Shown piece after piece: positions 17,553 through 41,075 of a stretch of 57,334 bases of DNA. Each line of letters starts with the position of its first letter. Position 1 is the first letter of the stretch. The translations under genes and the position numbers were made by a program. The stretch lies in the NCBI GenBank assembly GCA_041917695.1, contig JAYRXE010000010.1:1-57334 (forward strand), in the 5' to 3' direction. The notes beneath the pieces are model-generated. The model was given only the letters and a program-made list of their open reading frames with translations, searched no databases and was not told the DNA's origin. The DNA comes from Minisyncoccota bacterium. GTDB taxonomy: Bacteria > Patescibacteriota > Minisyncoccia > UBA6257 > GWB1-50-10.

Positions 17553-18017
17553 TTAAATATTTAAGCGCGGTTCGCCTGAGCACCCCATCCACCAAAAGAC
17601 CAAGGCGACGAACCCGGCGAGGAACAGTAGGCTCGGCAAACTCAGGAAAAGTAACTCGCGGGAGCCGAAGGACTTCTCGTTCCAAGGATCTACAGTCCAG
17701 GTAATTGCCGTCAATAAAGCTGCCCCGAGGAGACCCGAAACGACCAGTTCAATTGCGAACATCACGAATAAGTTTCCCCCGCAGAAATTGAAGCAGAGAA
17801 CACTCGTCAGGATAGGGGTGAACGCCAGAATCGTCGTTCCGATCCTGGCCAACGTCCTATTCAAAGTTTGAGATCGGGTACTCCTTGTTCTTACCCAGAA
17901 CCCTGTCCAAAGGAGTGCGATTCCCAGGATCATTCCGATCATCAATTTGTGCGAAAAGAAGGGGGGTAGCGTTGACGGTCCTTTGAGAAGACCATCGGGA
18001 AGAAGCGCTTCGAACAT
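17553..18017 (-). CDS. integral membrane protein (154 aa)
   Basis: ORF track. Four to five hydrophobic helices. Starts 9 nt after the stop of the giant gene. Confidence 0.6.
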   Translation of the reverse strand: MFEALLPDGLLKGPSTLPPFFSHKLMIGMILGIALLWTGFWVRTRSTRSQTLNRTLARIGTTILAFTPILTSVLCFNFCGGNLFVMFAIELVVSGLLGAALLTAITWTVDPWNEKSFGSRELLFLSLPSLLFLAGFVALVFWWMGCSGEPRLNI

Positions 18018-18026
18018 GATGTCTCC

Positions 18027-21000
18027 TTACATAACCATCGCGTATTGCTCAACGGAGGTATTCCTGCTTCTCTCCGTTTGAACAGCCGGCTGAACGAACC
18101 CTTTCTCCACCATGAAGGCTCTGAGATTTTCGGCTTCGCTCCGGGTCATTTCCCCATTCGGGTCACCCATAACCAGGTTGTCCCGAGCAATGCGGTCGAG
18201 GGTTTTCACATAGGGCGTCAGCATCGAGGGATCGGTATGCCTCATCCCGTGAGAAACTCTCATCATCAAATCGGCATCGATTCCCTGATCCATCAATGCT
18301 GTCACGAATCCTGCATCCTGTTTTGTGAACCCGGTCATACGGGTGACCGAAACATCGACCTTTTGATTCGAACGATAGGCGACGCTGGCTCCGCATGCTT
18401 CGATCAGTTCGATTACCCCTTCGATCTTCTGCTCGTTCTGGAGCCTGTTCATCTCGTTGAACACGACAGTTTCCGTCAACGCGGTTCGACCGGATTCTCT
18501 CGCGGCTCGGCTACTCATGGCCTGGGCGTAGACGGCCTCGGTCAAGACCATGCCATTCAATTTTGCAATCGTTTCGGGGTTGATCGCCGTCTGGGCAAAC
18601 TGTTCAAGTTCGTTCGCTTTATATTTGCCCGGGTTGATTCCTTTGCCGATTTCAATAACCGACATCAACAACGCTTCCCGGTAATGGCGAGGGGATTCGA
18701 GCAAAGCGGTCAATGCCCGGTCGAAGTCGGCCAGGCGCGCGGCCTGATCATCGACCATGACAGGTAGAACCACCTGAACCGGCTTTGGTTCGGTTGCCCT
18801 GATTTCAGGAATTGGCGCACTGGCATGGAAAGGCCTATCCGGCACCGTCGAGGAAGCAGCCATCGGAGTCGATCCGCCGAGATTGCCCGCTGCCCCCCCA
18901 AGTGGGCCTCCACTCTCACTTCCGGGTGTTCCCGACGTTCCACCGCCATCCGGATCGATATCAACGCGCGGAAGAGGGCCTGCACCCTGTTCAGGTTCCT
19001 CGACTTTTCTTCGATTTTCCAGAGCAGTTGCAGCCGTAGATCTGACCTCTTCATCCCCATCGAAAACGGCCATTCTCAGGATGTTCTCGGACATCGGATT
19101 CCGGGGCGAGGCGGCAAAGACCTCAACAACCTTCTGGCGGACGGCCGGGTCCTCGTCGCTGAAGCTTCCGAACAGTTTTTTCCCGGTTTCTTCAACTCCG
19201 ATTCGAGGCCCAAGCAGCTCGACTGCGACGGTTCGCATTTCGGCGTTCCCTGCGTCAAGGTTCCGAAGCAGGAATTTTTCCGCCCAATCGGCAACCGCTT
19301 CATTTTCGGTATCGAAAACACCAAACAAAGCTTCCTTCACTTCTGCCGGGACGGGTTCGTTACCCAAAACCGCTTTTCTCGTTTCCAATTGAACCGAGGG
19401 ATGCTCGTCCGAGAAGCAAACCACCAGTTTTTCTCGGTTTTCAGGATTTTTTGCCAGCTCCTTGAGGGTATAAACAGAAGCCTCTCGAACCTCGGTTGCC
19501 TCCGCTTTCAGCCCTTCAATCACCAGGCGTTTAACTTCCAAGTCTTGTTCCGCAACCGAGGACAGCGAGAAAATTGCGAGACTTCTCGGTTCACTTTCCA
19601 CCCCATCCCCAGCCAAGGCGTAAACTCTCTTCAAAATCTCCTGGTCTTCATTCAATCCATCAAAGACCTTCAACAATACAGCCTTCTGAACTTTCGGATC
19701 TTCTTCAGGCGACATCGCTTCCAATATCGCAGCTCGGACATCACTCTTGTCGAAATGCGGCCACAACTGATCCAACGCCTTGGTTCGAGCCCAGGGATCG
19801 AACTCCCTGTCTGAGAATTTTCTCAGGTTTTCAACAACCTCCGTCGGGATATCCGAGCCCTTACGCGCCTCGACCCCGACTCGGTCTCCGAGAAGATCCA
19901 TCGCAACACCGCGCATTTCGGCGCCACTACCTTTGAGGAGTTGCTGAAGGTAATTCTCGGCCCACCCGCTAACGATTTCGCTCTTATCGTCGAACACTCC
20001 CGCCAAGGCTTCCCTTACCTCTTCAGCGGTCGAGCTTGCCGCCAAGAGTGCTTTTCTCGCCTCTACCCGGACAAAAGGACTTTCATCCGAAATGCAGTCC
20101 TTGAGGCTTTCGCGAACGCCTTCGTTTCTTTCCAGTCCGTTCAATGAATACGCGGAAACGACTCGTACGATTTCCTCTTCGGCCTTTAACCCCGCGGTGA
20201 CCAGCGCTTTCGCCTTCTCGTCATTTTCAACGAGCGAGAGGAGATAAATTCCGAAACTTCTGGTTTTTTCATCAGAGGCCTCGCCGGCCAGCGAGTAGAT
20301 CTCGTCCAAAACGCCGGGATAATTCTCAAGTCCTTCCAGAAACGCCGTTCGATTTTCTTCCTTTCCAAAATTGACCAACAACTGACCCAGGGCTTCCGAT
20401 CTTTCCTCCGGATTGAGCGTGCGGTCCGAAAATCTTTCCAAGTTGTTCCGAAGCAGTTCTTGCTCGGCTTCGGGAATGCCCTGTCGATCCTCACTTCGTT
20501 CCTGCGTTTCCATCTGCCGGGCCTCGGTTTCCTTCACCGCGCTTCCCGTTTCGACAGCCATCGCCGTTTTCCGAACCCCTTCATCCTTATCCGAAAGGGC
20601 CATTCTCATTACACTCCGAGTCAATGGGTTTTCGGGCGAAGCCGCAAACGCTTCCACGACCTTTTCGCGAACTGATGGCTCACCATCGGTGTAAGACAAA
20701 AAGATTTTTTTCGCGATTTCCTCGTCTCCAAGCCGGGGCCCGAGAAGTTCCACCCCCGCGGCGCGCATTTCAGGGCGAGGGTCTTCGATTCTTTGTTGAA
20801 GGTACTTCTCCGCCCATTGGAGAATTTTTTCATCTTCATCCTGGAAAACGCCCTCAAAAGCCTCTTTCACGGCTTCCGAATTCGGGTTGATCCCCAAAAC
20901 CGCTTTTCTCGCATCCAGCCTGACGACGCCGCTTTCATCCGAAAACAGAGCTTTCAGTTTCGTTCGAATTTCAGCTTCCCCGGCCAACTTGGTGAGCACA

Positions 21001-22916
21001 TTGACGGAAGTCTCTCGAACGTTCGCCTCGTTCGCATTCAATCCCTCAACCGCCAATCGTCGAACCTCTTCGTACCTTTCGACGAAGTCGGAAAGGGAAT
21101 AAAGCGCCAGAGTCCGCGTATCGGGACTCACGCCGACGCCGGCCAAGGGATAGATCCTTGTCAAGATCTCTTCGTCACTGCCCAAAGACTCCCAGACTTT
21201 TACCAGGACCTCTTTCTGGATTTGCGGGTCTTCATCAGGAGACAACCCAGCCAACACCGCACTGCGAACTTCACTCTTTTCGAAATTCCTCCACAAAATG
21301 TCCAATGCCTGAGATCTTTCCCAAGAATCGATCTTCCTGTCCGAGAACAATTCCAAGGCTTCCCCTAACTCCTGGGAGATCCCCGTATCCCTTCCGGTTT
21401 CTTCCACCTGTTCCTCGGACACAGGCACGCCTTCGCCCTTGGTCCCGTCCGATCCCAAAGGCACCCCGAATTCGTCCAATAGCTGGTCATTCGTAGGTGG
21501 CGGATTCGGTGACGTCAGAAAGAGGCAGTTCTCGAAAATCCGTTCGGTCGGTTCAAAGTCCGGACTGAATTCCATCGACCTGAATTGGCAGTCCCTGAAA
21601 AGCGCGCCTTCAAATGAAGCTCCCTTGAAGCTGCCGCTCGCGAACGTGGCGTTTCGAATCTCGAAGTTTTCCAGTCTCACCCCGGTGAGGTTGGAAAAAC
21701 TCACCGTGCCTTGTTCCATGCTCGCGTTCAAAAAGTCCGCATCGGTAAAGTCCGATTCATAGATCAGCGAGTTCGAAAATACTGACGACTCCAGGTTGGC
21801 TCCCCGGAACAACCCTTTCATGTTGGCCCCGCTGAAGGTCCCGCGTGAGAGATTCGAGCCGCTGAAATCGACACCGAAAAAGGAGGTGTCGATCCATTTC
21901 GAACTCATCAGGTTCGAATCATTCAGTCTCACGTTTCTGAGGGTCGCGCCTTTCAGGTTTGCGCCGTTGAGTCTCGCACCGGTTCCGGATACGTCCTTGA
22001 AGGTCGTTTTCGAAAGGTCCGCCAAGGAGAAGTCCGCTTTCGAAATATCCTGGTTCTCGATTTTCAGACCGGACAGATTCATCCGGGAGAACTCGCCTCG
22101 ACGACCTCCTTCACCATCGGAATCCAGCCAGTCCATGTGGGCGTTCAACATCCGGTCGAACCCGGACTGGGTCGGACCGATAAGGCTGGACAGCCTCCGT
22201 TCTTCGGTGTCGGGGTTTGCGACAATAAAAATATCCCGGTAGTCGGCGAGTCTTTCACCGTAACTCCGGGCTTCTTCCGGGGTGAACCCGGCTAACTTCA
22301 ACCTGATTCGAACCGGCAGTTCATCATCCCCTTGATTGAGCATTCCATCGGGTTGCGGCCGGTTATCCGGATTTCCGTATTTCAGAATCGTCCAGCTCGG
22401 GGCCTTTTCGATGAAGGCAACCGACGTAACCGGCTCAAGCCGTCCCGGGTTAAGGATGAAGACTTCCTTTTCCAGACATCCCGGCTCCTGGACGAGTTCC
22501 TGAATGACCCGATCCCGATCCTTATCCGAAACCAGTTTCGTCAGCGTTTTATCCAGTAGTTTCAGATCGCTTATTCCGAAAGGTCGAGGCCTTGCTTCCC
22601 CTACAACGGCTCCACTGAGCGTCAATCCGACCACGAAAAGCTCTTCGTCGAGATCGTCGTGCTGGACGACCTCGACATCTCCGAGACCGAAAAACTCGAT
22701 GGTTGTTTTTTGATACGGGAGCGAAAGTTTGACCGTCCCCTGTTCGGTTTTCCTGAAGTCCTCGCTGAACGCCAGTTGGAGCCGGCCATCGTTCGATCCC
22801 AAATGGGCGGGCTCCGCCAAATTGAGTGCCCTCGCAAGTCGGACAATCGACTCTCCTTGCTCATAGGTAACCAGTTCCGTGGTAGCGGGCATCTCGAAGC
22901 TCCTTCTCTCTGACAC
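18027..22916 (-). CDS. giant (1629 aa) pentapeptide-repeat / HEAT-like repeat protein
   Basis: Residues about 290-470 are pentapeptide repeats (ADFSLADLSKTTFKDVSGTGARLNGANLKGATLRNVRLNDSNL...). Three paralogous helical modules of about 200-290 aa follow, each beginning ...FSDR...W/ERS.ALD.LW.NF. A Gly/Pro linker and a roughly 330-aa unique C-terminal domain complete it. Confidence 0.85.
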   Translation of the reverse strand: MSERRSFEMPATTELVTYEQGESIVRLARALNLAEPAHLGSNDGRLQLAFSEDFRKTEQGTVKLSLPYQKTTIEFFGLGDVEVVQHDDLDEELFVVGLTLSGAVVGEARPRPFGISDLKLLDKTLTKLVSDKDRDRVIQELVQEPGCLEKEVFILNPGRLEPVTSVAFIEKAPSWTILKYGNPDNRPQPDGMLNQGDDELPVRIRLKLAGFTPEEARSYGERLADYRDIFIVANPDTEERRLSSLIGPTQSGFDRMLNAHMDWLDSDGEGGRRGEFSRMNLSGLKIENQDISKADFSLADLSKTTFKDVSGTGARLNGANLKGATLRNVRLNDSNLMSSKWIDTSFFGVDFSGSNLSRGTFSGANMKGLFRGANLESSVFSNSLIYESDFTDADFLNASMEQGTVSFSNLTGVRLENFEIRNATFASGSFKGASFEGALFRDCQFRSMEFSPDFEPTERIFENCLFLTSPNPPPTNDQLLDEFGVPLGSDGTKGEGVPVSEEQVEETGRDTGISQELGEALELFSDRKIDSWERSQALDILWRNFEKSEVRSAVLAGLSPDEDPQIQKEVLVKVWESLGSDEEILTRIYPLAGVGVSPDTRTLALYSLSDFVERYEEVRRLAVEGLNANEANVRETSVNVLTKLAGEAEIRTKLKALFSDESGVVRLDARKAVLGINPNSEAVKEAFEGVFQDEDEKILQWAEKYLQQRIEDPRPEMRAAGVELLGPRLGDEEIAKKIFLSYTDGEPSVREKVVEAFAASPENPLTRSVMRMALSDKDEGVRKTAMAVETGSAVKETEARQMETQERSEDRQGIPEAEQELLRNNLERFSDRTLNPEERSEALGQLLVNFGKEENRTAFLEGLENYPGVLDEIYSLAGEASDEKTRSFGIYLLSLVENDEKAKALVTAGLKAEEEIVRVVSAYSLNGLERNEGVRESLKDCISDESPFVRVEARKALLAASSTAEEVREALAGVFDDKSEIVSGWAENYLQQLLKGSGAEMRGVAMDLLGDRVGVEARKGSDIPTEVVENLRKFSDREFDPWARTKALDQLWPHFDKSDVRAAILEAMSPEEDPKVQKAVLLKVFDGLNEDQEILKRVYALAGDGVESEPRSLAIFSLSSVAEQDLEVKRLVIEGLKAEATEVREASVYTLKELAKNPENREKLVVCFSDEHPSVQLETRKAVLGNEPVPAEVKEALFGVFDTENEAVADWAEKFLLRNLDAGNAEMRTVAVELLGPRIGVEETGKKLFGSFSDEDPAVRQKVVEVFAASPRNPMSENILRMAVFDGDEEVRSTAATALENRRKVEEPEQGAGPLPRVDIDPDGGGTSGTPGSESGGPLGGAAGNLGGSTPMAASSTVPDRPFHASAPIPEIRATEPKPVQVVLPVMVDDQAARLADFDRALTALLESPRHYREALLMSVIEIGKGINPGKYKANELEQFAQTAINPETIAKLNGMVLTEAVYAQAMSSRAARESGRTALTETVVFNEMNRLQNEQKIEGVIELIEACGASVAYRSNQKVDVSVTRMTGFTKQDAGFVTALMDQGIDADLMMRVSHGMRHTDPSMLTPYVKTLDRIARDNLVMGDPNGEMTRSEAENLRAFMVEKGFVQPAVQTERSRNTSVEQYAMVM

Positions 22917-22966
22917 CGCCGGTCGTCAACTTGGACGACCGGTCCAGTCGAAACGCTGCGTTCGCT

Positions 22967-23359
22967 TCACGCCGCCTTCCCCAGGTTGAAGGGCACCGGC
23001 TGCGCGTTCAGATCGTTCGGAAATCCTTCGAACTCAATGCCGTCGAGCAGCTCGGAGATCTCGCTGCCCAGATCGATCACGGAGTGTTCTTCGCCGCTGG
23101 TTTTGAGATTGTCGGAGAAGAACGCCCCGAATTCGATTTCGAGGTTCTTTCCGTACTGTTCGTCGCGAACGACGCTTCCCGGGCTGACTTCCTGAATCAC
23201 GCTCGATTCGTGAACGATCACCGAGCGGCCACCCGTGGTGATCATCTGGTAGCGTCTGCCCACGCTTCCAGGAATGTCCGGAATGGCGACGATGCGTCCC
23301 TGCCCGTAGATGGTCGTGTTGACGATGGCCCCGATTTGGAATTGCTTCTTTTCGCTCAT
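22967..23359 (-). CDS. hypothetical protein (130 aa), first gene of the minus-strand operon
   Basis: ORF track. AAGGAG upstream of the ATG. Lies about 40 nt downstream of the predicted minus-strand sigma54 start site. Confidence 0.65.
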   Translation of the reverse strand: MSEKKQFQIGAIVNTTIYGQGRIVAIPDIPGSVGRRYQMITTGGRSVIVHESSVIQEVSPGSVVRDEQYGKNLEIEFGAFFSDNLKTSGEEHSVIDLGSEISELLDGIEFEGFPNDLNAQPVPFNLGKAA

Positions 23360-23410
23360 GGTTTTCTGCTCCTTTGCTTGGCTTTTAAAAGCGGACCTGC
23401 CAGACCTCTT

Positions 23411-23426
23411 GGCGAATTCCGTGCCA
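23411..23426 (-). promoter_or_regulatory. sigma54-type -24/-12 promoter (minus strand)
   Basis: Minus strand reads TGGCACGGAATTCGCC. GG and GC are at the canonical 10-nt spacing. The -12 element is TCGC rather than TTGC. Confidence 0.55.
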
Positions 23427-23502
23427 AAGTTCGATAAGAGCTTCGGAAATCCATAACTCCAACAAAATCAACAAAATGCCTTTTCTTGACGGTTTTTTTA
23501 AT

Positions 23503-23518
23503 TTCCGGAAATCAGGAA
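23503..23518. promoter_or_regulatory. 16-bp palindrome TTCCGGA-AA-TCAGGAA (putative enhancer-binding-protein site)
   Basis: 7-2-7 inverted repeat between the two divergent sigma54 promoters. The same architecture occurs at 26194, 26222, 35495 and 50891. Confidence 0.55.
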
Positions 23519-23642
23519 ACTTAAAAGTGATTCCTAAAATTAAGACTCTTACGGAGTTGTCGTTTTGCTTTCCCCAAATTTCCCGCCCTTGAAAATCAAT
23601 GACTTAGCCCAAAAAAAGAAATGCCCGCGAACGGCATTTCAT

Positions 23643-23658
23643 TGGCACGCATATTGCT
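23643..23658 (+). promoter_or_regulatory. sigma54-type -24/-12 promoter (plus strand)
   Basis: TGGCACGCATATTGCT matches TGGCACG-N4-TTGCW exactly. Confidence 0.65.
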
Positions 23659-23695
23659 TGATTCCGAGTACTTTCTCGGAAAGGGTTTCAACGGC

Positions 23696-25024
23696 ATGCA
23701 TGGAATCGAAGGGTTCGGCGAACAAAGAGGCAGACTGCTTGCGGTCCAAATGGAAGCCGAAGCTGCAACTCAACGCATGATCGATCACGAGAACAATCTC
23801 GGTTTTATCGAGATTGCGCTGGACAACCCGCAAGCTGCCGGGCTCAAGCCTCGCACCGGTCTACACACGGTCACCCTCCATGACCTGGTTTCCGCGCGTA
23901 GCGCGACCGAACGCCTCGTCGAGGAGGTAGAAGTAAATTTCAACTTCGCCGCCTTGAATACCTTCTACGAGATCGCGAGACAAAAGACGGTTCAGGCGGT
24001 CGGTGCTCAGGGTCGAGTACAGGATGTGCAGGCAGTCGTGTCCTACCTTAAAGACCCGGGTGCCGGGTTGAAGCAAACCCTCACGGGTGAAATTCTCAAA
24101 GGAACGGACAGACAGACGGCGGAAACCTTCGACAACGCCCAGAAGGTTCGACAGGGGCTCGGAATACTCAAGCAACTTGCCGCCAAGGACCCGGAAGCCG
24201 CGGCGTTACTCGACCGGTACAAACTTCAGACCTCCCTCGAACAGATGGTCCTCGAAGCGCATTCCCAAACCCTTCAGTCGCTCGCCAAACACGCATCCTC
24301 GGCCGAGATCAAAAGGGACGCACTGGAAGGGATCGTCGCCGATCACACCGCCCAGCTCACCGCATCCGGCACTCCCATTCCTAACGCGGTGTTCTCGGAT
24401 GAGGCGCTGAATGTGGCGCTTCAAAATGCCAGCGGCATTCGCTCTTCGACACTCATCGAGGAGTTCGGTCAAGTCCTTCGACAGACGCCCCTCACTCCGG
24501 AAGCGAAACAGATCGTCGTCAACCGGCTGTACGGCGCGACGGATTTTTTGCATTCAAGGGCCGCACACGAAACTCTTGTTTCAATGCAAACCCAGGACGC
24601 CGTGGACCGGATCGAGCGCGGTCAGATTCCGTCCGATCCCACCCTTTTCAGAACCCTCGTTGAAGTACCCGAAGGTCTCACGATCGAGGGCCGTGAACTT
24701 CAACAGTTCAGGGGGGTCGAAGGCGGACAGAAACAGGTCCAATTCGTTCTCGAACAACTCACTCGTAAGCACGAAGGCGTAAGCGTTGCGGAGATCCAGA
24801 ATGCCGCCCGGTTCGCCGCGGCACACGACACCGCCCAGACCGCGCGGGAAGTCGAAGTCATGACGAACGACCTTTCGCGCGAATGGAAGATCAGTCCGGA
24901 TCGCGCGTTGCTCACCGCGAGCGAGCGCGATTACCTCAAGGCTGTATCAATCGATCCGGCCGTCACCGCACCGGCCCAGGAAGATATCGCTCTTACGGCT
25001 GCTGAAGCCGCACTTACTCTTTGA
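23696..25024 (+). CDS. hypothetical alpha-helical protein (about 443 aa)
   Basis: ORF 23621..25024. The first ATG lies upstream of the sigma54 promoter, so the internal Met MHGIEG (23696) is the more likely start. Confidence 0.65.
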   Translation: MHGIEGFGEQRGRLLAVQMEAEAATQRMIDHENNLGFIEIALDNPQAAGLKPRTGLHTVTLHDLVSARSATERLVEEVEVNFNFAALNTFYEIARQKTVQAVGAQGRVQDVQAVVSYLKDPGAGLKQTLTGEILKGTDRQTAETFDNAQKVRQGLGILKQLAAKDPEAAALLDRYKLQTSLEQMVLEAHSQTLQSLAKHASSAEIKRDALEGIVADHTAQLTASGTPIPNAVFSDEALNVALQNASGIRSSTLIEEFGQVLRQTPLTPEAKQIVVNRLYGATDFLHSRAAHETLVSMQTQDAVDRIERGQIPSDPTLFRTLVEVPEGLTIEGRELQQFRGVEGGQKQVQFVLEQLTRKHEGVSVAEIQNAARFAAAHDTAQTAREVEVMTNDLSREWKISPDRALLTASERDYLKAVSIDPAVTAPAQEDIALTAAEAALTL

Positions 25025-25044
25025 AGGAAGGAACCCGAAATCCC

Positions 25045-25224
25045 ATGACGCATTCGACCATTTACGACGATCCCTATCTCGATGAGCTTCTTCAACAGGA
25101 ACAGGAACCTTCCCTTTCCCCCGAACTCTCCCGCCGGGTCGATGAGCGGCTCAGACAATTTCGCGGCCCCCTCCCCGAAGGGCTGATCGAGGCCGAGGTC
25201 GGCAAGATGGGAATTTTCGATTGA
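25045..25224 (+). CDS. small acidic hypothetical protein (59 aa)
   Basis: ATG at 25045 inside ORF 25021..25224. GAAGGAAGG upstream. Confidence 0.45.
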   Translation: MTHSTIYDDPYLDELLQQEQEPSLSPELSRRVDERLRQFRGPLPEGLIEAEVGKMGIFD

Positions 25225-25245
25225 AAAAAGTTCGGTAGAAAGGTT

Positions 25246-25713
25246 TTGAGGACTGCCATGCAAGCGACATCGACTCAACTGAATCCCGCGGAAGAATGGC
25301 TCCGGCGATGGAAGGAGTTCGCCCTGATGTTTGACGTGATGCTTAAAGCGGAGGGCCAGGGGCGGGTTGCGTTGGGTCGTCAGTGCGCCGCCTATTCCTA
25401 CAGGCTTTTCATCTCGCAAAACTTCACCGACGCGATTCCGGCCGCGCACTTTGGAAAGCTCGCTGCCCCCGATTTACCCGAGGTCCTCATCGTTCATGGG
25501 GCAGCCTGCTACATGCGCCGGTCGTTGAACCCCGATCTCCTCGTCGAAGCCAGGGAATCCTGGCAAGTGGCGGCGGCTTCCGAATCCCCCGTCAAGGTAC
25601 TGGCGGAACAACTTCTTTCCATCATCGATCTGAATGTGGTCGATCCGTTCAAGACGTTCCTCCTGACTCCCGGGATGCCTTTTCCTTCAAACGACTTCAC
25701 CGTTCAGAGCTGA
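25246..25713 (+). CDS. hypothetical protein (about 151-155 aa)
   Basis: ORF track. Alternative ATG at 25258. Confidence 0.55.
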   Translation: MRTAMQATSTQLNPAEEWLRRWKEFALMFDVMLKAEGQGRVALGRQCAAYSYRLFISQNFTDAIPAAHFGKLAAPDLPEVLIVHGAACYMRRSLNPDLLVEARESWQVAAASESPVKVLAEQLLSIIDLNVVDPFKTFLLTPGMPFPSNDFTVQS

Positions 25714-25719
25714 ATCACT

Positions 25720-26166
25720 ATGCCCCACTCCAAAAAGATTTCACCCACCGAACGCCACCAATTCGCTCAGGTCCTCAACCGTGTCCGTCACGCAGGGCAA
25801 TTAGCCAGTAATGACATGGTTGTCGGCCGTTCCTCCGAAGTCCCTTTTGGGAAGATCGGATCAACGGCTTTCGAGCAGGCGCAAATCGCCAGGGACCTTT
25901 CCTGTTGGTGCATGCACGTCGAAGCACTTCAGGCACTCGCCCTCGCGTTCCATCTGCTTGACCATCCCAAGGACCAGCACCTGCGACAACTTGCCGATCT
26001 TCCCGAGTTGAACCGAATCCTTACGGAAGCGGCCGAGGAAGTCGCCGTCTATTCAACGGCCCACTTCATCTGTCACCGGGCGGATCTCCTTCAATCAGGC
26101 GTGAAGAAATTTTCGGACGAGGCCATCCTTTTGGCCACCCGCTTTTCAGTCCCCTGCCCGATCTGA
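25720..26166 (+). CDS. hypothetical protein (148 aa)
   Basis: ORF track. Tightly spaced after the previous gene. Confidence 0.55.
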   Translation: MPHSKKISPTERHQFAQVLNRVRHAGQLASNDMVVGRSSEVPFGKIGSTAFEQAQIARDLSCWCMHVEALQALALAFHLLDHPKDQHLRQLADLPELNRILTEAAEEVAVYSTAHFICHRADLLQSGVKKFSDEAILLATRFSVPCPI

Positions 26167-26193
26167 GTTTTCAAAGAAACGCTCGATCTAAAT

Positions 26194-26237
26194 TTCCTGA
26201 TTTTAGGAATCTCCTCTGGTATTCCTGAATTCAGGAT
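26194..26237. promoter_or_regulatory. two copies of the 16-bp palindrome (TTCCTGA-TT-TTAGGAA and TTCCTGA-AT-TCAGGAT)
   Basis: 26194-26209 and 26222-26237, centred 92 and 64 nt upstream of the sigma54 -24 element at 26293. Confidence 0.55.
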
Positions 26238-26292
26238 TTTGTCGTTTAGGGGCAAACTATTGGATTGTAAAGACTTGTGAACATTCTTTATT

Positions 26293-26308
26293 TGGCACGA
26301 CGTTTGCT
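26293..26308 (+). promoter_or_regulatory. sigma54-type -24/-12 promoter upstream of the helicase gene
   Basis: TGGCACGACGTTTGCT matches TGGCACG-N4-TTGCW exactly. Confidence 0.65.
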
Positions 26309-26317
26309 TTTTCAATC

Positions 26318-27991
26318 TTGAACCCGCGTCCGTCGATTTTCGACAAAGACCACTCTGAAAAAACCAAATACGCGCATTTTCGAAGCATGCTCAGACTTCG
26401 CCCATACCAGAACGAATGCGTCGGCGCCTGCCAGAAAAAATGGGAAGAAGGCTACGCGCGCCTGCTCGTCGCACTTGCGACCGGTTTGGGAAAAACGATC
26501 CTTTTTTCCGAAATTGCGAGTCAGCGGATTCGCAAAAACAACAAGGAACGAGTCCTGATTCTCGCCCATCTGGACGAACTCCTGACTCAGGCGACCGAAA
26601 AGATTCCCTTGGTCGATCCGAATCTCCAGTCGCACATCATCCGAAAAGGCCACATCGATCACTCGGCGCCGGTTCACCTCATCTCCGTCCAATCGGCCTC
26701 GACACCCCAAACGCTCGACCAGCTCCGAAAAGTCGGCTACGGCTTGGTGATTGTTGACGAGGCCCATCACACCCCGGCCGATGAATACCAGGTTGTCCTG
26801 GGGGAACTCGGATGTTTCTCTGGGCAAACCAAACTGCTCGGAGTGACCGCCACGCCGTTCAGGACCGACGACCGGGAACTCGACGAAACCTTCGAGGTGA
26901 CCGCCTACAAGAAAGGAATTCTGGAAGGGATCATCGAGGGGTACTTGGCCGACCTGAGAGGAATCGAGGTCCCCATCGATTGCGACCTCGGACAGTCGAG
27001 CGGGTCCGACTACAATGCCGGCAAACTCGGTCGCATTCTGAGAGGCGTGCTCCCGGAAGTCGCGCTCGATACGATCCAGCGATACGCCCCGAACCGGAAA
27101 ACCATCATCTTCGTTCCGACTATCGAGGTCGCCCGCGATGTCGCCGCGACACTGGTCGCCCACGGCATCTCAGCCGACCACGTTTCTGGCGAGGGTACCC
27201 CTACCGAACGTCGTCGAAAGATCGCCGACTACCGGGCCAATAAAATCCGGGTCCTCGTCAACGCAATGCTTTTGACTGAAGGCTTCGACGATCCCGAAAC
27301 CGATTGCGTGATCGTCGCCAGACCGACCCTGAGCAAGGGGCTCTATATTCAGATGATCGGCCGCGGCCTGCGTTTGTTTCCCGGCAAATCCGACTGCCTG
27401 GTCGTGGACCTCGTTCCTAAAGGCCACAAATCGCCGACGCTCACCTTGGCCGAGATGGCAAGGGTGACACCTGAAGAAGCCCGGAATCGGGGAATGCGCG
27501 CCCTCTACAAGAAAAAGAAGCAATCCGCCGATTCTCTCGGGAATCCCAAATGGGGAGATGGTCACGAGCGAAATCTTTTCGCGGATCTCAACTGGAGCCG
27601 CTTCGAGGGCGAGGTCTACGGGATACAGGTGGAAAAAACGTCGGTGGTCCTTTTCCCGGTGTCCGGGTTCGACCGCTACCATCCCCTGTACGATGTGTTC
27701 ATCCAGGAAGGCTCCCAAGGGCAGTTCCTTCATCGATCCCTTTCTCTCCCGTATTCCCAAGGAGTGGCCGAGGACCTGATTCGAGACCGAAATGCCTTTC
27801 AGCTCACAAAAACTCAGGCAGGATGGCGAGACCTACCAGTGACCGACTCGCAGTTTCAGGCCCTTCAAATCAACAAACTTCCCTTCCACAAAGACATGAC
27901 CCGCGGCGAGGCCTGTGACCTGATTCAGCAATCGAAACTCTCCCGAGTCGTTCAGGCGCTTCGTCGAAAAAGCCAGGAACAAGCCGCTTGA
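26318..27991 (+). CDS. superfamily-2 DEAD/DEAH-box helicase with a C-terminal extension
   Basis: Motif I ATGLGKT, motif II VDEAHH, motif III TATP, helicase-C region (MLLTEGFDDPE...ARPT...QMIGRGLR). The TTG start at 26318 lies at the predicted transcription start. ATG at 26387 is an alternative. Confidence 0.85.
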   Translation: MNPRPSIFDKDHSEKTKYAHFRSMLRLRPYQNECVGACQKKWEEGYARLLVALATGLGKTILFSEIASQRIRKNNKERVLILAHLDELLTQATEKIPLVDPNLQSHIIRKGHIDHSAPVHLISVQSASTPQTLDQLRKVGYGLVIVDEAHHTPADEYQVVLGELGCFSGQTKLLGVTATPFRTDDRELDETFEVTAYKKGILEGIIEGYLADLRGIEVPIDCDLGQSSGSDYNAGKLGRILRGVLPEVALDTIQRYAPNRKTIIFVPTIEVARDVAATLVAHGISADHVSGEGTPTERRRKIADYRANKIRVLVNAMLLTEGFDDPETDCVIVARPTLSKGLYIQMIGRGLRLFPGKSDCLVVDLVPKGHKSPTLTLAEMARVTPEEARNRGMRALYKKKKQSADSLGNPKWGDGHERNLFADLNWSRFEGEVYGIQVEKTSVVLFPVSGFDRYHPLYDVFIQEGSQGQFLHRSLSLPYSQGVAEDLIRDRNAFQLTKTQAGWRDLPVTDSQFQALQINKLPFHKDMTRGEACDLIQQSKLSRVVQALRRKSQEQAA

Positions 27992-28100
27992 CCCGAGATC
28001 TCAACCGACACGGATCCAACGGAAATTTTTTGTTTGCGGAAGTATTACTCGAACCTGTCTTTCCGATGACCAGGCGCGCGGCAAGCCTCGGCCTTCAGGC

Positions 28101-29602: not shown

Positions 29603-29654
29603 GCCTTCAGGCCGGGGAAGGATAGCGCGAACGCGGAAGGCGTCTTCCCGTGGA

Positions 29655-30071
29655 TCAGTGAGGTCTCTGCTGTTGCTGGATGTACTGCCTGATGATCTCG
29701 ATGGGCGCACCGCCGCAGCTTCCGGCAAAGTAGGAAGGAGACCAGAGGGCGCCGCCCAATAGCTTCTTTCTGATCCCTAGGTCGTTTTTCTTTCGAATCA
29801 GTCGGCTGGAGACTCCCTTCAAACTGTTCACCAGCGCCGACACCGCGACCTTCGGCGGGTAATTCACCAGCAGATGGACGTGATCGTCCTCGCCGTCGAA
29901 CTCCACGAGTTCCGCCTCGAAGTCCGCGCAGACGCTGGAAAAGATTTCGCGCAAATCGTCGAGAATATCGATCGTGAAGACATTTCGGCGGTATTTGGTC
30001 ACGAAGACCAAATGGACGTGCATAAGAAAAACACAATGCCTGCCGTGTCGAATATCGTTGTCATCGCTCAT
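29655..30071 (-). CDS. tnpA: IS200/IS605 TnpA, HUH/Y1 single-strand transposase (138 aa)
   Basis: Internal Met MSDDNDIRHGRH of ORF 29655..30350. HUH motif HVHLLV and the Tyr-containing C-terminal helix (APIEIIRQYI). Confidence 0.85.
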   Translation of the reverse strand: MSDDNDIRHGRHCVFLMHVHLVFVTKYRRNVFTIDILDDLREIFSSVCADFEAELVEFDGEDDHVHLLVNYPPKVAVSALVNSLKGVSSRLIRKKNDLGIRKKLLGGALWSPSYFAGSCGGAPIEIIRQYIQQQQRPH

Positions 30072-30092
30072 GGACCAAATTATAATCCAGAC

Positions 30093-31331: not shown

Positions 31332-31382
31332 GCGCCGTAGGAATCCCCGGCCTTTAGGCCGGGGAGGATGTCAAGTTTATAT

Positions 31383-31674
31383 TCAGGAAGCAGGTCAACA
31401 AGGGCAGTTCCTCCATCGATCCCTTTCCCTCCCTTATGCCCAAGGAGTGGCAGAGGATCTGATTTGAGACCGGAATGCCTTTCAGCTCACCACCACCCAA
31501 GCTGGATGGCGAGAACTCCCTGTAACCGATTCCCAGTTTCAGGCGCTTCAACTCAACAAACTTCCCTTCCACAAGGACATGACCCGTGGAGAGGCCTGCG
31601 ACCTGATTCAGCAATCAAAACTCTCCCGAGTCGTTCAGGCGCTTCGTCGAAAAAACCAGGAACGAGCTGCCTGA
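31383..31674 (+). pseudogene. diverged 3' fragment of a helicase paralogue (copy 2 of 27703-27991)
   Basis: High DNA identity (roughly 85-90% by eye) to the helicase 3' end. In-frame TGA where the helicase has CGA (..AEDLI*DRNA..). Starts right at the IS605 right end. Confidence 0.75.
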
Positions 31675-31675
31675 C

Positions 31676-33204: not shown

Positions 33205-33299
33205 TTCCTTTATACTGAGGTTTAATTATAGATAAAACGTAACAAAAATGCACGCATGTCACGCATTTTAGGTCGCTAAATATTCTTTATTCCCACAAG

Positions 33300-35494: not shown

Positions 35495-35510
35495 TTCCGG
35501 AAATCCGGAA
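35495..35510. promoter_or_regulatory. perfect 16-bp palindrome TTCCGGA-AA-TCCGGAA
   Basis: Centred 90 nt upstream of the sigma54 -24 element at 35593. Confidence 0.55.
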
Positions 35511-35592
35511 TCTAAGCAAATGTCGTGTTTTCAGGAAAATCTCGCGCACTAAAAATCACTTAGAATCAGTCAGTTACAAATCTCAACCACTT

Positions 35593-35608
35593 TGGCACGA
35601 TGCTTGCA
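35593..35608 (+). promoter_or_regulatory. sigma54-type -24/-12 promoter upstream of the pseudopilin operon
   Basis: TGGCACGATGCTTGCA matches TGGCACG-N4-TTGCW exactly. The leader to the ATG at 35845 is about 225 nt. Confidence 0.6.
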
Positions 35609-35844: not shown

Positions 35845-37119
35845 ATGATGTTGAAAAAAAAGAACGGTCCAAAATTTGCCTACGGATATCTGCTCCTCCT
35901 GCCTTTTGCGTTTTCGATATTTTTCGCAGGTGGATCATCGCCGAAGGTCAGAGCTGAAAGTCCCGGCCAGTACACAACGTCCGCCGAATTCTTCACGGAT
36001 GTCACCAACTGGTGTACGACCGAGGTTCGCGGAACCAGACGCTGGAAGCTCGAAGCCACCTACAACCCCACGGATCGGACACTTTCCGGGAAAGTGGTTT
36101 TCACCAACACCGGGGATCAGGCAAGCGGCCAGAACAAAGCGTATCTCTACGTCGATTCGTTCGATATTTTCGACATCGACGGGAACCAGATCGCCACGCT
36201 CCCCTGTTCGCTTCTCAACCAGCCTTCCGGAGACTACTCGTTTGCGACCATCACCCTTCCGACCGACCCCTACCTGGTCAAGGTGTCGGGGCAGAACTAT
36301 CGTTCCCCCGGAATTTGTCCTCCCGGTCCGTTTCAAGACGATTACTCGCTGCCGTTCAACCAGCTGGCCACCAATCCCTATTTCAACGTCCCCTGCCCTG
36401 TAATCACGACCTTCCAGATCACGCCGAACCCGGTTCCCCCGGGCGGAAGCGTGACGGCGGACTGGGTCGTCGAGAACCTTTTCATCGGAAGGAAGATCAG
36501 AATTACCGGTCCCGGCTTTCCCTCGGGCGACCGCACCGACGCAACCGGAAGTCAGGTCTTCACCGCGCCGGCCACCATCGGGAACTACACATACACGCTT
36601 TCGATCATCGAGCGGGACGGGACGACCCAGGTTGCCTGCGTCACGCCTCGAACGGTGACGCTCGTCGTCGGTGGGGCCAATTTCTTCTGGCTGGTCAAAC
36701 GCCAGCAAATTGCGGGAGAGCTTTATCCGCCGGGAAGTCCGCCTTTTTATGTCGAGCCGCCCGTAGGTACCGCTCCCCCTGGATCGAACGATTCCGGTTC
36801 CTTCAGGCGGGTTCCTGAAACGGGCTTCTTTCAGGCAACTTCATTCTCTCAAGCCCAAACCATGTTCATTACAGAGAGGAATACAGCCAGAATCCAGATG
36901 ATTGCTTCGGATCAATTCTTCCCTGGTGGTGCTCGAAGTCCAAATTATCTTGCTGCCCGAAATGATTTCCTTGTTGGCGTCAATCAACTTTATCCAAATG
37001 CCGTCAACAGATTTAATTCACAGAATCCCGGGTATGCCGGTCCGATTCTTGGAGTCGGGCTGCCTGAAAATCTCTCAACCCCCAAGCGGAATGAGCGAGT
37101 AGACCCATATGAAAATTAG
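35845..37119 (+). CDS. secreted hypothetical protein (424 aa)
   Basis: ORF track. Signal peptide. GAGGG upstream of the ATG. Confidence 0.7.
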   Translation: MMLKKKNGPKFAYGYLLLLPFAFSIFFAGGSSPKVRAESPGQYTTSAEFFTDVTNWCTTEVRGTRRWKLEATYNPTDRTLSGKVVFTNTGDQASGQNKAYLYVDSFDIFDIDGNQIATLPCSLLNQPSGDYSFATITLPTDPYLVKVSGQNYRSPGICPPGPFQDDYSLPFNQLATNPYFNVPCPVITTFQITPNPVPPGGSVTADWVVENLFIGRKIRITGPGFPSGDRTDATGSQVFTAPATIGNYTYTLSIIERDGTTQVACVTPRTVTLVVGGANFFWLVKRQQIAGELYPPGSPPFYVEPPVGTAPPGSNDSGSFRRVPETGFFQATSFSQAQTMFITERNTARIQMIASDQFFPGGARSPNYLAARNDFLVGVNQLYPNAVNRFNSQNPGYAGPILGVGLPENLSTPKRNERVDPYEN

Positions 37120-38047
37120 AAAAATAGAAGCCGGCTATTCGCTGATCGAGCTGATAATTGCCGTCACCATTTTCACGATTGTCATCGTGGGATTCGGTGC
37201 CGCGTTCGGGGTTTCCCTGAGAACCGCGAGATTCCAGCAAGGGCAAGCGCTTCTCAACACCGACCTTCAGCGGGCATCCAAACTCCTCGACACCGACGTT
37301 CGCCAGACGGGGTTTCTTCTGGCAGCCGGTTCCAACAACACCCTTCCGCTCTTCGTCAGGGACGGACACCCGGTCGCCGCGGTCGAAGTCGCTGACGACG
37401 GCAAAACCCTTCGTTGCTACCGGATCGGCGACGAATCGGGCGGTCGCGCGGTCGAAGGCATCACACCCGCCGGCGCGATCACTTCCGGTACAACCGAATT
37501 CACCGTGGCCGGAAACATCTCGACACTGACCGGCCGGATCGGGTCTTCGAGGGCCTTCCTTTTCGTTTCCGAGGGCCTCGGACGCCAGGGGCTGCTCTTC
37601 ATCACAAGTTCGGCTCCAACCGTTGACTCGGTGAATCCCAATCTGGTTCACCTTCGGGGCGCATTCTCATCCGGCCCCTGTCTGAATGTCGGCGATATCG
37701 GAACCGCACCCGTCGATTACAGAGGAATGCTCGCGATACCTGTCAGTTCATATCTCGAGTATCGGGTCCGGGATGAAGGCCTCGTGCGTTCCGAATATCC
37801 CGGGACCCTCAACCCTTGCGGAAGCACTGCAACTTCAACGGATAAACTCCTGATCCAGACCACCCATTTCGCCGATCTTCGTTTCGGCTACCTCCGTTCG
37901 AACGGCGACAACGCGGTCACTGTAGCCGACTCCGATTTCCCATCGATTCGAGGCGTCATGCTCGTCGTCAAACGGCGAAACACCGGTACCGCGAATAACG
38001 AATTCGTCAGCCATTATGTCCCGTTCATCATGAACAGCGAGTGGTGA
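37109..38047 (+). CDS. prepilin-type N-terminal cleavage/methylation-domain protein (pseudopilin-like, 312 aa)
   Basis: MKIRKIEAG/YSLIELIIAVTIFTIV: Gly before the cleavage site and Glu at +5, followed by a hydrophobic helix. Confidence 0.75.
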   Translation: MKIRKIEAGYSLIELIIAVTIFTIVIVGFGAAFGVSLRTARFQQGQALLNTDLQRASKLLDTDVRQTGFLLAAGSNNTLPLFVRDGHPVAAVEVADDGKTLRCYRIGDESGGRAVEGITPAGAITSGTTEFTVAGNISTLTGRIGSSRAFLFVSEGLGRQGLLFITSSAPTVDSVNPNLVHLRGAFSSGPCLNVGDIGTAPVDYRGMLAIPVSSYLEYRVRDEGLVRSEYPGTLNPCGSTATSTDKLLIQTTHFADLRFGYLRSNGDNAVTVADSDFPSIRGVMLVVKRRNTGTANNEFVSHYVPFIMNSEW

Positions 38048-38050
38048 ATC

Positions 38051-38482
38051 ATGCCGAAGAACCGTCGACAAAACTTTTGCCGGAATCAGAACGGAACGCT
38101 CTACGTCGAGCTGCTGATCGCCATCGCCCTTCTGGCGGTTTTCGGTGCGGTCGTGATGTCCTACATCACCCAGCACCAACGACTTCAACAATTGGCTCGA
38201 GTTCGGGACACCGCGAATTACACCGCCAATGCAGCCGCGCGCCTTTACAAGGTCAATTTTTGTCCTTCCGGAACCGTCGTTCCGGGAAACGGAACGGTCG
38301 TCGTATCCGAACAGGGAATCAAGCTTTTCGTTCTTCCCGATACCCCCGCGGCGGGAACCCCCGGCCAGACGTTTTTGTTCCGGGCTACTTCAAGTCGAAC
38401 TCCAACCGGGGGAAATGCCCTGAGCTTCGAACTCGTTGACCAGTTCGGAAAGTCCATCACCGTGAAGATCATCCCGATCTGA
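38051..38482 (+). CDS. prepilin-type N-terminal-domain protein (143 aa)
   Basis: ...NQNG/TLYVELLIAIALLAVFG: Gly, Glu at +5, then a hydrophobic helix. Confidence 0.65.
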   Translation: MPKNRRQNFCRNQNGTLYVELLIAIALLAVFGAVVMSYITQHQRLQQLARVRDTANYTANAAARLYKVNFCPSGTVVPGNGTVVVSEQGIKLFVLPDTPAAGTPGQTFLFRATSSRTPTGGNALSFELVDQFGKSITVKIIPI

Positions 38483-38525
38483 AACCCGAATCCGATTCAA
38501 GTACGTAAAGGAAGGTGTTCAAACC

Positions 38526-39407
38526 ATGCCGATTCTCGTCGTTATCGCGCTGATGGCCATTCTTATCGGAATTCTTTCTCCGGTTTCGGAACAGACCGTC
38601 CAAACCACCCGTCAGGCCTATCTGGATCAGGCCGTGACCGAAAACAACGAATTCGCCGACAATGCGTCGGTGAACCTTCGTCAATTCAAGATCAATACCG
38701 TGGTTGGCGATATCCAGCGGGATCCGTCCTCGAGCGCCAAAAGCCTTCAGGGGATGCAGTTGGTCCAGTTCAGAATCTACGGGAACCCTTCTTACGTTTC
38801 GTCCTTGGGGAACTATACGGCCTGGCCGGTTCCCGCGACCGAGATGCAGAAATTCATGGATGAAGCGATGGGAACGGTCCCGAACTTCCTTGTGCGCGAG
38901 CAGCCGGTATTCGTCGGAAACTTCACCGTTCAGAGGTGGTCGATCCGGATCGACAAAGTGCGCTTCACCGAGTGGACGCTCGTCGATCAGTCCTGGCTCG
39001 ACGCAAAATTCGGCCCCGCCGGTTCCGGCTACTCGCGATGGGTTGCTCGCGTGGACATCGAGACGACCGAAACGTTCTGGAAGGATCAGGTTGGCCTCGA
39101 CGGCAAACCCTTCGATCAGGTCGGAACGGACCCCTGCAACAAATGCACCAGTCCGACCGCCCCGACCCGGGGCGTTTCACGCGCGGCAACTGCGTTCAAA
39201 CGTTCCTTCGAAATTCCCGTTTGTTTCGGGCTTCCGGGAGTCGCCTCACCGAAGCCTTGTAACGATCCGGCCTTTTCATTCGTTACACCCCTCGGTGTCT
39301 CCGGCAATGCCTGTAGTCCGCCCGATTGCCGAAACCACATCGTTGGTGGCGAGAACGGATGCGCCCCACCTGGATTTAATTACTCGTTTCAACTCGTCCA
39401 ACAATGA
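38526..39407 (+). CDS. pilin-like protein with a truncated leader (293 aa)
   Basis: Begins directly with the hydrophobic helix MPILVVIALMAILIGILSP. The upstream in-frame sequence back to the stop at 38463 has no G-x-x-x-x-E cleavage motif. Confidence 0.55.
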   Translation: MPILVVIALMAILIGILSPVSEQTVQTTRQAYLDQAVTENNEFADNASVNLRQFKINTVVGDIQRDPSSSAKSLQGMQLVQFRIYGNPSYVSSLGNYTAWPVPATEMQKFMDEAMGTVPNFLVREQPVFVGNFTVQRWSIRIDKVRFTEWTLVDQSWLDAKFGPAGSGYSRWVARVDIETTETFWKDQVGLDGKPFDQVGTDPCNKCTSPTAPTRGVSRAATAFKRSFEIPVCFGLPGVASPKPCNDPAFSFVTPLGVSGNACSPPDCRNHIVGGENGCAPPGFNYSFQLVQQ

Positions 39408-40979: not shown

Positions 40980-41075
40980 ATACGCCTCACCGAAATTCAT
41001 ATTCACCCGTTGCTATCTTTTCCGAAAAAATCGTCCGAACGGTTTTCTTGTTTTTCAAAAATCACCCAAATCAAA

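Follow-up and report, generated by a model that had tools for sequence, protein, structure and literature searches.

A probable pair of back-to-back sigma-54 promoters with a shared enhancer, and its place in a predicted four-promoter regulon on mobile DNA

Introduction

The interval 23411-23658 of contig JAYRXE010000010.1 (Minisyncoccota bacterium, assembly GCA_041917695.1; the whole stretch of 57,334 nucleotides that was analysed is referred to here as the window) carries two promoter-like motifs that point away from each other. Are these true sigma-54 (RpoN) promoters, are they governed from a common site, and what do they control? The initial annotation had proposed a divergent sigma-54 pair with one palindromic upstream site. 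Very probably, to judge from the comparison of orthologous sequences, the flagged DNA is indeed a true back-to-back promoter pair sharing one activator-binding enhancer; the comparative evidence supports the shared enhancer, which, however, consists of two dyads and not of one. Furthermore, the pair is part of a predicted regulon of four promoters (P1 to P4) rather than an isolated feature. We regard it as highly likely that 23411-23658 is the control region of two divergent sigma-54 operons, and that the activator acting at its enhancer is common to P3 and P4. Orthologous loci for comparison were taken from metagenome contigs (L003, L004, L005, L066, L053, L050 and L052).

Two probable divergent sigma-54 promoters

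The two motifs are as follows.

23426..23411, minus strand: P1, predicted sigma-54 promoter TGGCACGGAATTCGCC, GG-N10-GC with TCGC at -12, two mismatches to TGGCACG-N4-TTGCW
23643..23658, plus strand: P2, predicted sigma-54 promoter TGGCACGCATATTGCT, perfect match to TGGCACG-N4-TTGCW

Both sequences, as well as the spacing of GG and GC, had been given correctly in the initial annotation. The perfect consensus TGGCACG-N4-TTGCW occurs three times in the window (23643, 26293 and 35593, all on the plus strand), compared with 0.01 occurrences expected from shuffles, and all three copies lie in non-coding gaps and are co-oriented with the next gene. GG and GC are exactly 10 nt apart in P1, P2, P3 and P4. 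If the start site is placed 12 nt after GC (an assumption used throughout, dyad centres being measured from that position), P1 is predicted to start at ~23400, with a leader of 41 nt to the ATG at 23359, and P2 at ~23669, with a leader of 27 nt to the ATG at 23696. With ~68 nt for P3 and 226 nt for P4, all four promoters have a non-coding position, an orientation towards a gene and a leader of plausible length.

Note that the P2 leader of 27 nt is obtained only with a corrected start codon. As called, the first gene after P2 encodes 467 aa from the ATG at 23621; this ATG lies upstream of P2 and is therefore excluded from the P2 transcript. The suggestion that the real start is at 23696 (442 aa) was confirmed: conservation begins there (Met26), the L004 orthologue was called from the homologous ATG, and a GGAAAGGG-type ribosome-binding site 8-10 nt before this ATG is conserved. 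In L003 the same over-extension of starts is seen on both flanks of the intergenic region. A start codon that gene callers had placed upstream of its promoter is thus corrected.

An 8-bp hairpin, GAAATGCCGTTCGCGGGCATTTC (23618-23640), abuts the -24 element of P2; T7 follows on the minus strand, which makes it terminator-like. A hairpin of different sequence (TCAGGCG...CGCCTGA beside A9) is found at the same place in L003, and an imperfect one in L004. It may insulate against antisense transcription or be bound by a protein.

A probable shared enhancer

The following elements were recognised between P1 and P2.

23503..23518: strong dyad TTCCGGAAATCAGGAA, centre at -110.5 from P1 and -158.5 from P2
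23531..23546: second, weaker dyad TTCCTAAAATTAAGAC, 28 bp from the first, centre at -138.5 from P1 and -130.5 from P2
23466..23478, plus strand: imperfect site like that of integration host factor (IHF), AATCAACAAAATG, between dyads and P1, core AAATCAA
23594..23606, plus strand: IHF-consensus site AATCAATGACTTA, between dyads and P2, at ~-69

The strong dyad had been described as a 7-2-7 palindrome; its sequence and position are right, but it is imperfect, with 6 of the 7 arm positions complementary. The distances given for it (85 and 132 nt) agree with ours when counted from its centre to GG (~86 nt on the minus and ~134 nt on the plus strand). Allowing at most one mismatch, the pattern TTCCKGA-NN-TCMGGAA has five matches in the window (0.08 expected), four of which precede a perfect sigma-54 match by no more than 160 bp (binomial probability ~2e-8): one at P1/P2, two copies at P3 and one at P4. 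The palindrome therefore recurs at these promoters and is rare elsewhere. The arrangement typical of enhancers for bacterial enhancer-binding proteins (bEBPs), i.e., tandem dyads ~80-160 bp upstream of the promoter, is present as well, with pairs 27-29 bp apart and centres from -88.5 to -163.5.

An IHF site between enhancer and promoter is common at sigma-54 promoters, although not obligatory. AATCAATGACTTA is the sole exact match to WATCAANNNNTTR in the window, and its L003 counterpart, AATCAATGATTTA, occupies the same position. On the P1 side, AAATCAA is invariant in the four aligned loci, and the homologous site of L004 is a perfect AATCAATAGTTTG. Putative IHF-type sites are also found before P3 of L003 and before P4 of both the window and L005.

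A half-like element, CTTCGGAAATCC, had been reported at 23451. The sequence is present, but at 23441-23452. We rejected it as a third enhancer site, as it is situated ~15-25 nt upstream of the -24 element, i.e., too close. It is not positionally conserved either: L003 has ATTCCGG 10 nt nearer to the promoter, and L004 has nothing comparable.

The fifth palindrome, TTCCGGAATGCCGGAA (50891-50906), is accompanied by CCGGAA-like repeats, CGGAATCCGG and GCCGGAAAATCCG (region 50820-50930), and is located ~20 nt before the ATG of an open reading frame (ORF) that is followed by a Tn7/Mu-like module (rve integrase and AAA_22 ATPase). Within 260 bp of the palindrome, no sigma-54 motif was found. These sequences may be transposon-end repeats or an unrelated operator.

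Two further predicted promoters with the same layout

Downstream on the plus strand, two more control regions were recognised.

26194-26209, plus strand: P3 dyad TTCCTGATTTTAGGAA, centre at -117.5
26222-26237, plus strand: P3 dyad TTCCTGAATTCAGGAT, centre at -89.5
26293-26308, plus strand: P3, predicted sigma-54 promoter TGGCACGACGTTTGCT, perfect match; control region 26194..26308
35495-35510, plus strand: perfect P4 dyad TTCCGGAAATCCGGAA, centre at -116.5
35522-35537, plus strand: P4 half-dyad ending in TCAGGAA, centre at -89.5
35564-35576, plus strand: P4 IHF-like site AATCAGTCAGTTA
35593-35608, plus strand: P4, predicted sigma-54 promoter TGGCACGATGCTTGCA, perfect match; control region 35495..35608

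The P4 promoter region of L005 is 75% identical to that of the window and consists of the same blocks. The perfect P4 dyad reads TTCCGGAAATCCGGAA in the window and TTCCTAAATCTAGGAA in L005: both arms have changed symmetrically (GG..CC to TA..TA) and the dyad symmetry is kept, as is expected for a site read by a dimer.

Conservation of the control elements and their geometry

The loci compared are considerably diverged. The 442-aa protein encoded after P2 is 58% identical to its L003 and 46% identical to its L004 orthologue, and the 130-aa protein encoded after P1 39% and 34%, respectively, so that the identities of the flanking proteins span 34-58% across these two loci. Promoters were nevertheless retained: L003 has counterparts of P1 (TGGCACGGCATTCGCC, minus strand), P2 (TGGCACACGCATTGCT, plus strand) and P3 (TGGCACAAGGGTTGCT, before the helicase gene), L004 has those of P1 (TGGCACGCAAATCGCA, minus strand) and P2 (TGGCATACGGTTTGCA, plus strand), and L005 and L066 have P3 and P4. 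The unusual TCGC element at -12 of P1 is kept in three lineages (window, L003 and L004). Indeed, the invariant blocks of a four-way alignment of the intergenic region are GCGAnTnnCGTGCCAAA (P1), AAATCAA and TGGCA..TTGC (P2). The -24/-12 elements are thus conserved while the flanking DNA has diverged to the point where the surroundings no longer align by blastn, and because of this phylogenetic footprint P1 is credible despite its weak score.

The distances between dyads and promoters are conserved as well. Dyad centres are as follows.

P1: window -110.5/-138.5; L003 -111.5/-139.5; L004 -111.5/-139.5
P2: window -158.5/-130.5; L003 -159.5/-131.5; L004 -163.5/-135.5
P3: window -117.5/-89.5; L003 -117.5/-88.5; L004 absent; L005 -117.5/-89.5
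P4: window -116.5/-89.5; L003 absent; L004 absent; L005 -116.5/-89.5

The geometry is constant within 1-5 bp across loci, and paired dyads are always 27-29 bp apart. In L003, the dyads (TTCTCGAAAACGGGAA and CTTTCGAAATCGAAAA) vary within the common TTC-N10-GAA frame. Those of L004 (TTACTGACAGAAGTGTCAGTAA), namely TTACTGACA-GAAG-TGTCAGTAA and GTGACA-AAAA-CGTCAG, are of the type CTGACA-N4-TGTCAG and wholly unlike the window dyads in sequence, yet they occupy the equivalent positions.

A metagenome scan for the P3/P4 geometry gave no matches. A scan for the pattern of the P1-P2 pair gave 11, all of them unrelated divergent sigma-54 pairs with other repeated sites upstream, and no orthologues. In three metagenome contigs (L056, L059 and L065) an unrelated divergent sigma-54 pair with its promoters ~215 bp apart encloses three copies of GTAGCATTTTGC; judged by this layout, it is a further natural example of a putative shared enhancer.

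The palindrome in other organisms

In one genome per species we searched for TTCCNGANNTCNGGAA with TGGCAC-N5-TTGC 55-85 nt after it. This yielded 43 loci (~2 estimated by chance), mostly of Burkholderiaceae (Cupriavidus, Paraburkholderia, Caballeronia, Ralstonia, Burkholderia), where TTCCGGAWTTCCGGAA stands amid further TCCGGA dyads and is followed by an IHF-like AATCAATGACTT and then by TGGCAC-N5-TTGC. In the three Burkholderiaceae loci examined (L008, L033 and L046), the genes after the promoter are dctA (SDF family) and one for a dCache histidine kinase; a gene for a REC-Sigma54_activat-HTH_8 regulator follows in L033 and L046. The layout is shared by these three and ~30 other Burkholderiaceae loci. 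The matches in Neobacillus have the same palindrome, one being exactly TTCCGGAAATCAGGAA, before an operon with a gene for a PAS-Sigma54_activat-HTH_8 regulator. By its genomic setting, therefore, the palindrome class is demonstrably of the enhancer type, as it stands next to operons that encode bEBPs in two lineages not related to each other.

RpoN-dependent dicarboxylate use and the pairing of dctD2 with dctA have been described for Ralstonia (PMC4676750). The Burkholderiaceae layout provides a ready-made predicted DctD site for that family, and we suggest this predicted DctD-type site as a lead to the DNA-binding domain of the activator in the window. The window itself contains no gene for an SDF transporter, a dCache kinase or a REC-AAA+ regulator; the dyad sequence alone is shared with DctB/DctD regulons.

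Proposed mechanism and alternatives

From the elements, their statistics, their geometry and their conservation we infer a mechanism in which bEBP binding, the requirement for IHF, the start sites and the inducing signal are all predicted. A dimeric bEBP with a Fis-type helix-turn-helix would bind the two TTCC-N8-GGAA dyads, the strong one at 23503-23518 and the weak one 28 bp away at 23531-23546, and would assemble there into an active AAA+ oligomer. Bending at the IHF-type sites on either side would then bring it into contact with the sigma-54 holoenzyme in its closed complex, either leftward at P1 or rightward at P2. P1 would drive the genes for the 130-aa protein, a giant HEAT/pentapeptide protein and a 154-aa protein, and P2 those for the 442-aa protein and three small proteins. 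The same activator would serve P3 (helicase) and P4 (pseudopilin module) with a -117/-89 geometry. All four operons, which belong to a single conserved and very rare cluster, should therefore be switched on together by one signal.

Several results weigh against this interpretation. P1 alone is not significant, since seven matches with at most two mismatches were found in the window and 7.4 are expected, and its -12 element, TCGC, is non-consensus. P3 has no recognisable IHF site. Furthermore, GAFTGA, ESELFGH and GESGTGKE are absent from a six-frame search of the 57-kb window, whose Walker A motifs are found only in two TniB-like ATPases; Pfam scans of essentially all ORFs >130 aa revealed neither Sigma54_activat nor HTH_8, and a bEBP gene was not found in any related contig either. 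The activator gene presumably lies on another part of the element or on the chromosome of the host.

The most probable alternative, although we consider it unlikely, is the following: the activator is not dedicated to the cluster, and the element borrows a DctD-type two-component bEBP of its host, with induction by a C4-dicarboxylate or a similar signal. In fact, reading the P4 dyad TTCCGGAAATCCGGAA on the opposite strand gives TTCCGGATTTCCGGAA, which precedes sigma-54 dctA promoters in Cupriavidus, Paraburkholderia and Caballeronia; no activator gene is linked to the cluster; and the L004 dyads differ, as would be expected if variants of the element used different resident bEBPs. However, even L004 retains the spacing of 27-29 bp and the promoter distances, which points to a single co-evolving family of activators, whereas the TCCGGA dyads before dctA of Burkholderiaceae are, by our own reading, spaced ~22 bp apart. 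The G+C content around the cluster (51-55%) is below the roughly 60-68% of Burkholderiaceae, and none of the genome-scan matches comes from the window's own host.

It is improbable, we think, that the sigma-54 promoters are real while the TTCC-N8-GGAA dyads are operators of another regulator (a repressor or a plasmid or phage factor), the bEBP acting from unrecognised sites or from solution. The missing linkage to a bEBP gene would agree with that, as would the CI/S24-type repressor (46537-47379) and the AbiEi encoded in the window, and the fifth palindrome (50891), which is placed just upstream of an ORF and has no sigma-54 promoter within 260 bp. Against it, the dyads do not overlie the promoters but are positioned at -90 to -160, at distances that changed by no more than a few bp even in L004 with its replaced dyad sequence, IHF-type sites intervene between dyads and promoters, and the same palindrome has the same position before bEBP-encoding operons of Burkholderiaceae and Neobacillus.

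Marginally less probable still is that P2 alone is functional, TGGCACGGAATTCGCC being a chance or decayed match and the operon of the 130-aa and HEAT proteins using another type of promoter. The two mismatches of P1, including TCGC at -12, and the near-identity of observed and expected counts speak for this. However, three lineages share the P1 motif, TCGC included, with unchanged distances to the orthologous gene and to the dyads, this motif is among the few invariant blocks of the intergenic alignment, and no sigma-70-like promoter was found in 22900-26500.

An origin of the motifs by chance or by copying of mobile sequences, with no promoter function, is hardly tenable: P3 and P4 are alike in layout and could be duplicates, and the region is rich in mobile elements, but the chance expectations are 0.01 (sigma-54) and 0.08 (palindromes), the elements are kept in diverged orthologues whose surroundings fail to align by blastn, and all copies lie in non-coding gaps and are co-oriented with genes.

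The genes of the predicted regulon form a rare cluster

The genes assigned to the four promoters, together with a neighbour, are as follows.

17553..23359, minus strand: P1 operon (130-aa gene, HEAT/pentapeptide gene, 154-aa gene)
22967-23359, minus strand: 130-aa protein, with a good ribosome-binding site
18027-22916, minus strand: HEAT and pentapeptide-repeat protein, ~1621-1629 aa
17553-18017, minus strand: 154-aa membrane protein
23696..26166, plus strand: P2 operon (442-aa all-alpha orphan, then 59-, 151- and 148-aa proteins)
26387..27991, plus strand: P3-driven gene for a ResIII/DEAD/Helicase_C superfamily-2 helicase
35845..39407, plus strand: P4 operon (424-aa, 312-aa, 143-aa pilin-like and 293-aa proteins)
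39456..41006, minus strand: 516-aa orphan gene, convergent with the end of the P4 operon, a constant companion of the pseudopilin module

In L004, the gene order is compact. The genes for a pentapeptide protein and a 129-aa protein are on the minus strand; on the plus strand, genes for 445-, 61-, 150- and 149-aa proteins and the helicase are followed by those for 434-, 316- (N_methyl), 146- and 296-aa proteins, and a 519-aa gene on the minus strand closes the series. The genes after all three plus-strand promoters of the window therefore belong to one conserved cluster, which insertions have broken in the window. The variants L005 and L066, which are 93-97% identical, additionally have a 597-aa HEAT gene ahead of the helicase promoter and, after P4, small ORFs for Cys-rich secreted products.

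The P4 operon looks like a type IV filament (pseudopilin) module. Its 312-aa protein has a classical prepilin N-terminus, G|YSLIELIIAV, and the module reading is favoured because in L050 and L052 the same module adjoins genes for a GGDEF protein and for two T2SSE ATPases; L050 has a gene for a T2SSF platform protein there as well. The L050 and L052 modules are preceded by a sigma-54-like promoter, TGGCACGCAAATTGCC or TGGCACAGAAATTGCC. Seven relatives of the 516-aa gene were found, and L050 and L052 are two of the contigs that carry one. In L053 and L004, the module is located directly after the helicase gene, with a conserved leader of ~130 nt and no canonical GG-N10-GC promoter of its own. 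P4 of the window and of L005 was seemingly added later, which would have brought the module back under the control of the activator once insertions had split it from the helicase operon.

The conserved block of ~130 nt before the 424-aa gene contains TAACTTTCTGAWAGYTAAGT ... CTTTTTCNGGTRTG ... GACCCCGC and has the following positions.

35718-35845 in the window; 19451-19580 in L005; ~6262-6418 in L004; 11185-11312, minus strand, in L053: ~130-nt leader

A structured RNA was rejected here (RNAalifold: 5 pairs, no covariation); the leader could be another type of promoter or a protein-binding region. In L004, the leader before the 434-aa gene includes TGGCACGTAATTCGTG (6355-6372), i.e., TGGCACG with the usual GG at -24 and with GT replacing GC at -12, which is either a decayed or a non-canonical sigma-54 site. 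The homologous leaders in the window, L005 and L053 have no such site.

Two differences in gene content touch the cluster. The 597-aa HEAT-repeat gene (1.9 kb), which L005, L066 and L003 have between the 148-aa gene and the P3 enhancer, is missing from the window (26175-26177 versus L005 12557-14456); its loss looks like a clean deletion beside a short tcaaaa repeat. After P4, L005 (18255-19456) and also L066 encode two small Cys-rich signal-peptide proteins and a secreted protein of 212-215 aa, where the window has a remnant ORF of 16 codons at 35694.

The products themselves are mostly orphans. Searches of the driven genes against Pfam, PHROG, PADLOC and PDB gave no match except for the helicase, the HEAT/pentapeptide repeats and the prepilin motif, the helicase being the sole match in PHROGs and PADLOC and the PDB sequence searches being empty; IMG/VR scans were empty too. 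The 442/467-aa family is extremely rare, with three clusters in 5.8 billion proteins and a single representative in 1.84 billion sequence clusters (a profile search found the family itself only). Its AlphaFold model is partly confident and all-alpha, and gave no Foldseek match at E below 0.7. A word-based search with the 130-aa protein found only this protein itself, and its AlphaFold model was unusable (pLDDT, the predicted local distance difference test score, of 33).

Mobile-element surroundings

An insertion block (27992-35590) splits the cluster between the helicase gene and P4; the repressor gene listed last lies beyond it.

28178-29596: Tn5-like transposase
29874-31331: TnpB
31676-33204: AbiEii/AbiEi toxin-antitoxin pair
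33496-35352: Ser/Thr kinase-FGE-sulfatase fusion
46537-47379: CI/S24-type repressor

About 250 bp of the helicase 3' end are duplicated at 31399-31647 (89% identical). The remaining window is also mobile DNA, with genes for ParA/ParB, two Tn7/Mu-like modules, MerR/MerT and the CI/S24 repressor. In plasmid sequences, megablast with the locus gave no match, and tblastn with ParA and with the kinase-FGE protein gave distant matches from mixed phyla only. A 660-aa ORF (12462-14444, minus strand) that adjoins ParA/ParB is conserved in L005 and has no Pfam match; its N-terminus resembles a degenerate DEDDh exonuclease motif (FDFVLTG), its Cys-rich C-terminus is zinc-ribbon-like, and it may serve to replicate or maintain the element. 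Scans for tRNAs and Rfam families found nothing in the window.

If the proposed regulon is real, it ties four operons, now separated by insertion sequences and a toxin-antitoxin pair, into one co-regulated unit of mostly orphan genes. Going further, we put forward only tentatively that the four promoters are a dedicated sigma-54 regulon of an undescribed mobile-element system, whose own co-evolving activator has changed its specificity (TTCC-N8-GGAA versus CTGACA-N4-TGTCAG) with the geometry fixed to the base pair. If this were true, it would be an instance of enhancer rewiring in nature, coupled to a new machinery for DNA transfer, uptake or defence, with the giant HEAT/pentapeptide protein, the all-alpha orphans, the superfamily-2 helicase and the type IV-filament pseudopilin module as its parts.

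Comparison with known systems

The zraP/zraSR genes of E. coli and Salmonella are described in PMC4987338 as having divergent sigma-54 promoters under the single bEBP ZraR. The region studied here resembles them in having two divergent sigma-54 promoters and, as proposed, one bEBP. In zra, however, the activator gene is part of one of the divergent operons (autoregulation), whereas here no activator is linked, the genes are orphans and two further promoters have the same type of enhancer.

For dctA of Rhizobium, tandem DctD-binding sites are named in the title of Ledebur et al. 1990 (listed in PMC11437626). Tandem dyads ~90-140 bp upstream of a sigma-54 promoter are common to both cases, and the predicted Burkholderiaceae site TTCCGGAWTTCCGGAA, with its IHF-like AATCAATGACTT, is near-identical to the window site. 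The targets in the window are unrelated to dicarboxylate transport, though, with no dctB or dctD nearby, and the dyads are spaced 28 bp apart compared with ~22 bp for the TCCGGA dyads of Cupriavidus and Caballeronia (our reading).

PilR-type sigma-54 control of pilins is well known, and sigma-54 control of the pilin-like P4 operon, if it is as predicted, fits this pattern by analogy. For Ralstonia, the bEBP gene pehR is listed with an RpoN promoter at pilA (PMC4676750). The likeness to PilR/PilS systems lies in the prepilin N-termini encoded after P4 and in the homologous modules adjoining T2SSE/T2SSF genes, which are also found behind sigma-54-like promoters. It ends where the window encodes neither a PilB/PilC-type ATPase or platform protein nor PilR/PilS, and where the same type of enhancer would also drive non-pilus genes (HEAT/pentapeptide, helicase, orphans).

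The Pu promoter has an IHF site. Its sigma-54 system with XylR on the TOL plasmid is described in PMC3900584. Here, too, a mobile replicon carries predicted upstream activator sites, then a putative IHF site and then the -24/-12 elements; the TOL plasmid, however, encodes XylR beside the regulated operons, whereas no such gene was found within the 57 kb of the window.

The design of the control region (divergent sigma-54 promoters, tandem dyads, putative IHF sites) is a textbook one, and on transcription itself it has nothing new to say. Precedents are zraP/zraSR for divergent promoters under one bEBP, dctA for the tandem sites and Pu/XylR for sigma-54 promoters on a plasmid. What it offers is a natural case, with the enhancer sequence swapped and the geometry preserved, for studying what sets the distance between a bEBP and its promoter.

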